Assembly: GCF_003334305.1 (NCBI RefSeq)
Contig: NZ_QOWS01000009.1
Length of the DNA: 64,000 bases
Strand: one strand, 5' to 3'
Source: Escherichia coli
GTDB taxonomy: Bacteria; Pseudomonadota; Gammaproteobacteria; Enterobacterales; Enterobacteriaceae
The translations under genes were made by a program, and so were the position numbers. Below the pieces are notes generated by a model. The model worked only from the letters and a program-made list of their open reading frames with translations, had not been told where the DNA came from and made no database searches. Positions 2,752-4,179 of the stretch are shown in pieces; the stretch's first letter is position 1, and the number at the start of each line of letters is the position of its first letter.

Positions 2752-4179
2752 ATGAGCGATAAAAAGAATCGCAGTATGGCGGGTTTGCCGTGGATCGCGG
2801 CGATGGCCTTCTTCATGCAGGCACTTGATGCCACTATTCTGAATACCGCCTTACCCGCAATCGCTCATAGCCTTAATCGTTCTCCTCTCGCGATGCAATC
2901 AGCCATCATCAGTTATACGCTGACGGTGGCGATGCTTATTCCGGTAAGCGGATGGCTAGCCGATCGCTTCGGTACGCGTCGCATTTTTACCCTTGCCGTG
3001 AGTCTGTTCACATTGGGTTCTCTGGCCTGCGCACTTTCTAATTCGCTACCACAGCTGGTTGTCTTCCGGGTTATTCAGGGGATAGGCGGCGCAATGATGA
3101 TGCCTGTTGCTCGGCTGGCCTTACTGCGCGCTTATCCTCGTAATGAACTTCTTCCAGTATTGAATTTTGTCGCCATGCCGGGTCTGGTGGGGCCAATTTT
3201 AGGCCCCGTTCTTGGCGGCGTGCTGGTCACCTGGGCAACCTGGCACTGGATATTTTTAATCAATATCCCCATAGGTATTGCGGGCCTTCTTTACGCGCGC
3301 AAACATATGCCCAATTTCACCACCGCACGACGCAGATTCGATATCACTGGCTTTTTGCTGTTTGGCCTCAGCCTTGTTCTCTTCTCAAGCGGAATAGAGC
3401 TATTCGGGGAAAAGATTGTCGCCAGCTGGATTGCCTTGACGGTAATTGTCACCAGCATCGGGTTACTGCTTCTCTATATTCTCCATGCGCGACACACGCC
3501 AAACCCATTAATTTCATTAGATTTATTTAAAACCCGCACTTTCTCGATCGGTATCGTAGGCAATATTGCAACCCGTCTGGGGACCGGTTGTGTACCGTTC
3601 CTTATGCCATTGATGTTACAGGTAGGATTTGGTTATCAGGCGTTTATTGCCGGCTGTATGATGGCACCGACAGCGTTAGGTTCCATTATTGCAAAATCGA
3701 TGGTTACCCAAGTCTTACGTCGTCTGGGCTATCGCCATACGTTAGTGGGGATCACGGTGATTATTGGGCTAATGATCGCTCAGTTCTCTTTGCAATCACC
3801 GGCAATGGCGATATGGATGCTGATCTTGCCGTTGTTTATATTAGGGATGGCTATGTCGACGCAATTTACCGCGATGAATACCATCACACTTGCCGATCTG
3901 ACCGATGACAACGCCAGCAGCGGTAACAGTGTTCTGGCGGTCACGCAGCAACTGTCGATTAGTTTAGGCGTTGCTGTAAGTGCGGCCGTCCTTCGCGTTT
4001 ATGAAGGGATGGAAGGCACAACGACTGTCGAACAATTCCACTATACGTTTATCACGATGGGCATTATTACTGTTGCTTCAGCAGCAATGTTCATGCTTCT
4101 GAAAACAACCGATGGTAATAATTTGATCAAAAGACAGCGTAAATCTAAGCCGAACCGCGTTCCATCAGAATCGGAGTAA
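2752..4179 (+). CDS. hsrA: MFS efflux transporter HsrA/YieO (475 aa, 14-TMS DHA2-like)
   Basis: Hydrophobic multi-pass ORF with MFS motifs ([11 protein letters not shown]); conserved position next to rbsR. Confidence 0.85.

Follow-up and report, generated by a model that had tools for sequence, protein, structure and literature searches.

In Escherichia coli, 663 pairs of adjacent genes overlap, of which 75 are convergent (Huvet and Stumpf, PMC4161906); in the literature, the 4-nt overlap is the commonest class overall, and phase 1 is the commonest phase once the 4-nt overlaps are excluded. Convergent overlaps have also been catalogued at the level of transcripts: 165 convergent excludons are listed for strain MG1655, among them rbsR-hsrA (PMC12288877), in agreement with a prior sequence-only reading of the DNA analysed here, which had implied that the two transcripts can interfere or pair in antisense. 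The pair also belongs to the core excludome, i.e., it is present in at least 50% of 58 MG1655 transcriptomes (ExcludonFinder, NAR 2025, PMC12288877 Table 1). Further, a region of Rho termination at MG1655 3,938,923 (-) has been classed as antisense to rbsR (Adams et al. 2021 eLife, PMC7815308). The overlap between these genes is ordinary and, being present in both standard annotation and published transcript maps, is already known; what we add here is its evolutionary history, the evidence for dual-coding constraint and the absence of a conserved RNA structure.

The window that we analysed, i.e., the whole stretch of 64,000 nucleotides from an E. coli contig (NZ_QOWS01000009.1), runs in the reverse orientation of the K-12 map. 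Its left end displays the 16S rRNA gene, yieP, hsrA, rbsR, rbsK and the remainder of the rbs operon (minus strand) in that order (Table 1). yieP and hsrA share an operon, and YieP is reported to activate the transcription of yieP itself and of this operon (PMC11340327). HsrA, a DHA2 transporter, is uncharacterised; a metabolomics screen has given candidate substrates for it. RbsR matches the NCBIfam equivalog NF007743 over its entire length (697 bits, 1-330 of 330), and HsrA matches both NCBIfam NF007799 (458.9 bits against a cut-off of 426, residues 13-465 only) and the DHA2 model TIGR00711 (263 bits). Given these family-model matches and the presence of orthologues in 80 species (see below), hsrA and rbsR are both real genes rather than spurious antisense ORFs. 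The RefSeq/PGAP label for hsrA (2752-4179) is "mdtD, multidrug transporter subunit MdtD", which arises because the subfamily model NF007799 is passed. The K-12 name of this gene is hsrA (yieO), and the true mdtD lies elsewhere, in the mdtABCD operon; the label looks like a paralogue-naming problem that has spread through thousands of genomes.

Table 1. Features of the hsrA-rbsR junction and its surroundings in window coordinates.
Feature	Position	Strand	Basis
16S rRNA gene	15-1556	-	Rfam search
yieP, FadR/GntR-family regulator, first gene of the yieP-hsrA operon	2037..2729	+	ORF and RefSeq
hsrA (yieO), DHA2-family MFS transporter, 475 aa	2752..4179	+	ORF and RefSeq
rbsR, LacI-family ribose operon repressor, 330 aa, last gene of rbsDACBKR	4145..5137	-	ORF and RefSeq
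hsrA stop codon TAA	4177..4179	+	raw sequence, codon map
rbsR stop codon TAG (cta on the + strand), within hsrA codons Ser465 and Lys466	4145..4147	-	raw sequence, codon map
Tail-to-tail coding overlap, 35 bp	4145..4179	both strands	codon map, RefSeq
3' untranslated part of the yieP-hsrA mRNA that lies antisense to rbsR, up to the Rho region (end approximate)	4180..4441	+	PMC7815308

The sequence-only reading had proposed a 35-bp convergent overlap between the 3' ends of hsrA and rbsR, and the ORF list, the raw sequence and a codon map all confirm it: both stop codons lie where they had been placed, and neither gene contains an earlier in-frame stop. Thus, hsrA and rbsR are a convergent overlapping pair of protein-coding genes, each with its own in-frame stop. 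On the hsrA side the overlap extends from the last two bases of codon 465 to codon 475 and the stop, and on the rbsR side from the last two bases of codon 320 to codon 330 and the stop. The overlap is in phase 1, with hsrA codon positions 1, 2 and 3 opposite rbsR positions 1, 3 and 2. The plus strand reads ...tct aag ccg aac cgc gtt cca tca gaa tcg gag TAA, and its complement on the rbsR strand reads CTT ACT CCG ATT CTG ATG GAA CGC GGT TCG GCT TAG; the hsrA TAA is the complement of positions 2-3 of rbsR Leu320 (CTT) together with position 1 of Thr321 (ACT).

Bases 2000-5200 of the window are 100% identical to the chromosome of strain EC11 and find a match in 5425 of 5426 complete E. coli genomes, each at 95% identity or more. 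A shorter 106-nt query spanning the junction is present in 5414 of the 5426, in 4445 of them at an identity of at least 99%, and RefSeq annotates the identical 35-bp overlap in both EC11 and K-12 AG100. In E. coli PA11 the match is limited to the yieP portion of the query, and the annotated features beneath it are yieP and ravA, a pattern suggestive of a deletion of hsrA, the rbs operon and kup. In E. coli 1162C, an IS3-family element, ISEc52 (L086 2571-3740), is lodged in the overlap with its insertion point at window 4171/4172, and RefSeq marks both hsrA and rbsR there as pseudogenes lacking their C-termini; because the element lies within the 35-bp overlap, a single insertion has damaged two genes. 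A mutation compendium lists rbsD, rbsB, rbsR and hsrA together among frequent mutation targets.

The length of the overlap is unsurprising: the antisense frame that hsrA uses has 24 stops per 331 codons across rbsR, and therefore a run of 11 stop-free codons is expected with P ~0.44. Of the four convergent junctions in the window, three have a spacer (61, 53 and 4 nt) and the fourth is the 35-nt overlap considered here. The 4-nt spacer (15213-15216) separates asnA (-) and viaA (+), a pair likewise listed as an excludon (PMC12288877); thus, a terminator would not fit at two of these four junctions. Co-directional overlaps of similar length also occur in the window, namely rnpA/yidD (37 nt, 63643-63679) and mdtL/yidZ (26 nt, 55704-55729). 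Elsewhere in the window, lpfABCD, an operon for an O113-type long polar fimbria, lies between pstS and glmS (31824-36806); it is not known from that position in K-12, which makes it an accessory island.

A scan of genomes, one per species, gave 80 Enterobacteriaceae loci, in each of which hsrA and rbsR are convergent, and the junction lengths were obtained by following each reading frame to its first stop. Apparent overlaps of 124, 40 and 79 nt in three of the loci (L057, L079 and L080, respectively) were discarded as tblastn read-through of stops, the true overlap in these being 4 nt. None of the 80 species has a spacer of more than 3 nt between the two genes. The stops are separated by a gap of 1-2 nt in 8 species (Phytobacter, Kluyvera); they overlap by 4 nt (TTAA, CTAA or TTAG) in 26 species from many genera, including Buttiauxella, Franconibacter, Raoultella, Trabulsiella and Pluralibacter; by 9 nt in 6 species of Kosakonia; by 24 nt in a single species, Kosakonia oryzendophytica; by 35 nt in 34 species (Escherichia, Salmonella, Citrobacter, Intestinirhabdus, Enterobacter and Leclercia); and by 53 nt in 5 species (Lelliottia, Huaxiibacter). 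One record in the set, CACSKA010000004.1, is labelled Chryseobacterium sp. 18061; its yieP-hsrA-rbsR locus is typical of enterobacteria and clusters beside that of Citrobacter sp. 18056 from the same project, and the record is probably mislabelled or contaminated.

A neighbour-joining tree was computed from HsrA and RbsR with the junction left out, and rooted on Buttiauxella. Fitch reconstruction on this two-gene tree gave 4 nt as the root state and at least 8 changes of junction state. The 35-nt state appears in two clades, one with Escherichia, Salmonella and Citrobacter and the other with Enterobacter and Leclercia, with the 53-nt state nested inside the latter; on this tree the 35-nt state could have arisen either once or twice.

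The end of RbsR (...LTP-x-L-x-x-RGS-A/V) is fixed in place, and the length of HsrA ranges from about 458 to 477 residues. A one-base difference is found directly upstream of the rbsR stop ("cacaaagcTTAa" versus "cacaaaaCTAa"). This, together with the fact that 35 and 4 are unequal modulo 3, argues for a frame-shifting indel rather than a stop-codon substitution. The ancestral junction would accordingly have been a TTAA-type stop/stop overlap of 4 nt, from which an indel shifting the A-rich hsrA 3' end by 1 nt may have put the gene into another frame. hsrA would then have read about 10 more codons antisense to the last codons of rbsR, up to the first stop of the new frame, the TAA that is supplied by the complement of rbsR Leu320-Thr321 (CTT-ACT). 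In the five species of the 53-nt clade RbsR lacks the TAG stop and has acquired 6 extra residues (...RGSVSAGGDL). Thus, the 53-nt overlap of Lelliottia and Huaxiibacter results from the loss of the RbsR stop, and the end of rbsR is movable too. All five of these species keep the same end of the HsrA tail, ...PSEQE followed by the stop.

We measured the constraint on the overlap using codon alignments of 35 sequences with the 35-nt overlap and of 40 species in which the overlap is at most 9 nt. Across the 35 sequences the HsrA tail has an amino-acid diversity of 0.342, as against 0.100 in the rest of the protein, which places it in the top 2% of windows. Its second codon positions are more variable than those of any other window, and its third positions, which lie opposite the second positions of rbsR, are the least variable in the gene, implying that RbsR dictates the shared sequence. 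The tail of HsrA is dictated mainly by RbsR, yet is weakly constrained in its own right. The last 22 residues of HsrA are hydrophilic (mean Kyte-Doolittle hydropathy -1.96) and follow a last hydrophobic segment centred near residues 440-443; the final 10 residues lie beyond the NCBIfam model NF007799, which ends at residue 465.

Over the last 11 codons of rbsR, synonymous third-position diversity in the 35-nt group is 0.223 compared with 0.433 gene-wide, lower than in every other 11-codon window. Where the overlap does not exceed 9 nt (40 species), these codons are unremarkable (0.476 versus 0.454). Part of the low diversity stems from the group being defined by its stop position, and the species are related; when the three stop-related codons are dropped, the synonymous diversity is still about 0.23, versus about 0.49 in the other group. 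At individual codons, Leu320 is CTT (33) or CTC (2) in all 35 overlap sequences, yielding a TAA or TGA stop for hsrA, and is variously CTG, CTC, CTT, TTG or CTA in the species without the overlap. Thr321 is ACT in 34 of the 35 and Ser329 is TCG in 33. As synonymous diversity in rbsR is low only in the species with the overlap, the alignments indicate that the overlap is under real dual-coding constraint, with the tail of HsrA being translated and the end point of hsrA being maintained.

We then examined the junction for signals of transcription termination. The sequence-only reading had held that the convergent ends leave no room for terminators, and this was borne out by a consensus and a relaxed scan, neither of which found one. 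The consensus promoter/terminator scan of 2600-5400 returned 4 terminator-like sites, as against 3.0 expected from shuffles, none of them between 3785 and 4944. The relaxed hairpin-plus-U scan was empty for ~570 nt past the hsrA stop and for ~400 nt past the rbsR stop, with the nearest sites (4753-4792 on the plus strand and 3745-3702 on the minus strand) being distant and weak. Folding of the single sequence at the junction was no better than that of shuffles (z of -0.74 and -1.34). In alignment folding, the region downstream of rbsR produced 0 consensus pairs (27 species), and that downstream of hsrA a weak consensus with compensatory change in only 2 of 31 pairs, which is accounted for by the coding conservation of rbsR. 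An rbsR-strand hairpin about 40-80 nt past the stop was rejected as a candidate terminator, as it has no U-tract and likewise shows 0 consensus pairs in 27 species. An intrinsic or bidirectional hairpin terminator is thus absent from the junction. A search with Rfam gathering thresholds, covering 1-10000 and the whole window, returned nothing at the junction; its hits elsewhere were the 16S rRNA and the enterobacterial sRNA STnc410 (187.7 bits, 27921-28078 on the minus strand, between glmU and atpC).

Since no terminator fits at the junction, each transcript must enter the opposite gene. Such run-through is documented for the hsrA strand as transcription antisense to rbsR that is stopped by Rho (PMC7815308). 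At the Rho region mentioned above, coverage drops from 102 to 32 in the absence of bicyclomycin and from 164 to 143 in its presence (PMC7815308), corresponding to a Rho score of 2.78 and a p of 7.6e-6 (PMC7815308 supplementary file 2). Published coordinates were converted by taking the window position as 3,943,364 minus the MG1655 coordinate, which was checked with two published 61-mers; the Rho region accordingly falls near window 4441, some 262 nt beyond the hsrA stop. This position is approximate because the score derives from coverage in windows of 800 nt, and the read counts are modest. The sequence offers no strong rut signal: on the hsrA strand, the 160 nt that follow the stop have C/G ratios of 0.86 and 0.73 and show no clear C-rich, G-poor tract, whereas the ratio is 1.33 at 4340-4419 and 1.48 at 4500-4579; some 80-nt blocks of the rbsR strand reach 1.39 to 1.84.

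The rbs transcripts show several ends before the junction, namely a strong 3' end at the hairpin between rbsB and rbsK (window 6086, minus strand), another at window 5039 (-), 98 nt into rbsR, and a Rho termination region at window 4977 (-) within the 5' part of rbsR (all PMC7815308). The end at 5039 lies directly after the hairpin GATCGCTTC...GAAGCGAT. Hence, expression of rbsR from the operon is curtailed at several sites before the overlap is reached, and little rbs transcription reaches the junction in LB; the same data contain no 3' end antisense to hsrA (PMC7815308).

Transcription on the hsrA strand thus ends, according to the published data, by Rho-dependent termination a few hundred nucleotides inside rbsR, in antisense, and transcription on the rbsR strand presumably ends by the same type of mechanism. 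The two mRNAs would therefore have 3' ends complementary over at least 35 nt and probably over hundreds of nucleotides, making collision of RNA polymerases and duplex RNA possible; the transcriptional interference or antisense regulation suggested by the sequence-only reading is hypothetical, and any such effect of the overlap would probably be small. We consider it likely, with good confidence, that the locus is an ordinary annotated overlap of spacer-less convergent operons, which originated from a 4-nt junction, is dual-coding, lacks a terminator at the junction and relies on Rho on the hsrA strand. What speaks against this reading is that the lack of a spacer in all 80 species, and the lowered synonymous variation, might also stem from selection acting on the overlapping layout as such.

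The alternative that fares best, though we regard it as unlikely, is that the junction is a selected regulatory excludon, wherein the terminator-free arrangement allows whichever operon is induced to lower the other via polymerase collision and cleavage of the duplex by RNase III. For example, ribose-induced read-through of rbsDACBKR might lower yieP-hsrA, or YieP-activated yieP-hsrA might lower rbsR, proposals that we judge just as unlikely. Consistent with such a role, the spacer-less convergent layout is found in 80 of 80 species, and excludon pairs are reported to be more syntenic than other neighbouring pairs (PMC12288877). The presence of the pair in the MG1655 core excludome (PMC12288877) likewise favours it, but its listing is almost automatic, because any pair with overlapping coding sequences scores as an excludon almost by definition. 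Likewise, the constraint on the synonymous sites of the overlap would be in keeping with a regulatory element; however, it is seen only where hsrA is translated and therefore fits protein coding rather than an RNA element. Junction length, which spans a range from a 2-nt gap to an overlap of 53 nt, has undergone at least 8 changes, and therefore no particular junction sequence is conserved, nor is there a conserved RNA structure. Moreover, most rbs transcription in LB ends upstream of the junction (PMC7815308). Our literature search found no stated link of HsrA or yieP-hsrA to ribose or ribose repression, i.e., no documented functional connection from ribose repression to HsrA, and no experiment on the hsrA-rbsR pair.

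Slightly less likely again, in our estimation, is a scenario in which the conserved lack of a spacer is itself selected as it couples the two operons: transcription of one would tune the other via collision or duplex RNA and so link ribose availability to export by HsrA. The HsrA tail would, moreover, have gained its own function, for which its conserved pattern, K-P-x-x-x-P-S-(E/K)-x-E, can be cited.

A different mechanism of termination, i.e., collision-driven bidirectional termination at the junction of the type seen by SEnd-seq in place of Rho-dependent termination, appears very unlikely. In the accessible part of the SEnd-seq literature this class is described as common between convergent E. 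coli pairs, unlike intrinsic terminators, and the junction indeed has no intrinsic terminator. The same literature, however, reports that the mechanism needs a stem-loop in the nascent RNA, of which none is significant or conserved here, and that it works better in highly expressed pairs, at odds with the low read counts of this locus; furthermore, the read-through on the hsrA strand responds to bicyclomycin (PMC7815308). Finally, that the overlap is an annotation artefact, with HsrA or RbsR truly ending earlier, is scarcely tenable: nothing specific speaks for it beyond the last 10 residues of HsrA falling outside the NCBIfam model and the poor conservation of the tail, and against it stand the unambiguous stop codons on which alone a 3' overlap depends, the full-length family matches of both ORFs, the hsrA stop position kept in 35 of 35 sequences with a TAA/TGA switch that is synonymous in rbsR, the same HsrA tail end in the five species with the 53-nt overlap, and a synonymous constraint in rbsR that is confined to the overlap species, as expected of a translated tail.

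The ordinary dual-coding overlap has practical consequences. Any edit within 4145-4179 alters two genes, and the synonymous sites in this interval are not neutral; for instance, on the codon map, recoding of the rbsR TAG to TAA would change HsrA Ser465 (TCT) to Phe (TTT). The strain NEBExpress(lowRF1) was considered as a possible case of such recoding and dismissed, as its two differences are at 4202 and 4205, outside the overlap. By itself the overlap matters little, being already annotated and catalogued as an excludon, with Rho mapped on one strand; nevertheless, the locus neatly illustrates, on a small scale, how an indel turns a stop/stop junction into a longer overlap and which gene then dictates the shared sequence.

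Several known systems can be set against hsrA-rbsR. The mscL-arfA pair is also convergent with overlapping 3' ends and figures in the same excludon list (PMC12288877); unlike hsrA-rbsR, it has experimental evidence of regulation, arfA antisense RNA being reported to regulate MscL (PMC10070815). The convergent excludons of ExcludonFinder include rbsR-hsrA by name, and its transcripts necessarily overlap (PMC12288877). However, the genes of an excludon, as that study defines it, exclude each other's expression by interference and RNase III cleavage, a behaviour that would be hypothetical for hsrA-rbsR; further, in this pair the coding sequences themselves overlap, in addition to the 3' UTRs. The likeness to Rho termination of untranslated or antisense RNA lies in the bicyclomycin-sensitive drop in coverage ~260 nt past the stop, and is documented for the hsrA strand only and at a coarse resolution (800-nt windows). 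A further counterpart is formed by the bacterial convergent overlapping pairs, in which the genes likewise share their 3' coding ends and the overlap is proposed to arise via loss or displacement of a stop (PMC4161906). hsrA-rbsR follows the norm of the literature in its phase 1, and its likely ancestral 4-nt state is the commonest class overall. It departs from the usual convergent overlaps in that its stop appears to have been moved by a frame-changing indel rather than by a point mutation in the stop codon, and otherwise differs from them in nothing essential.
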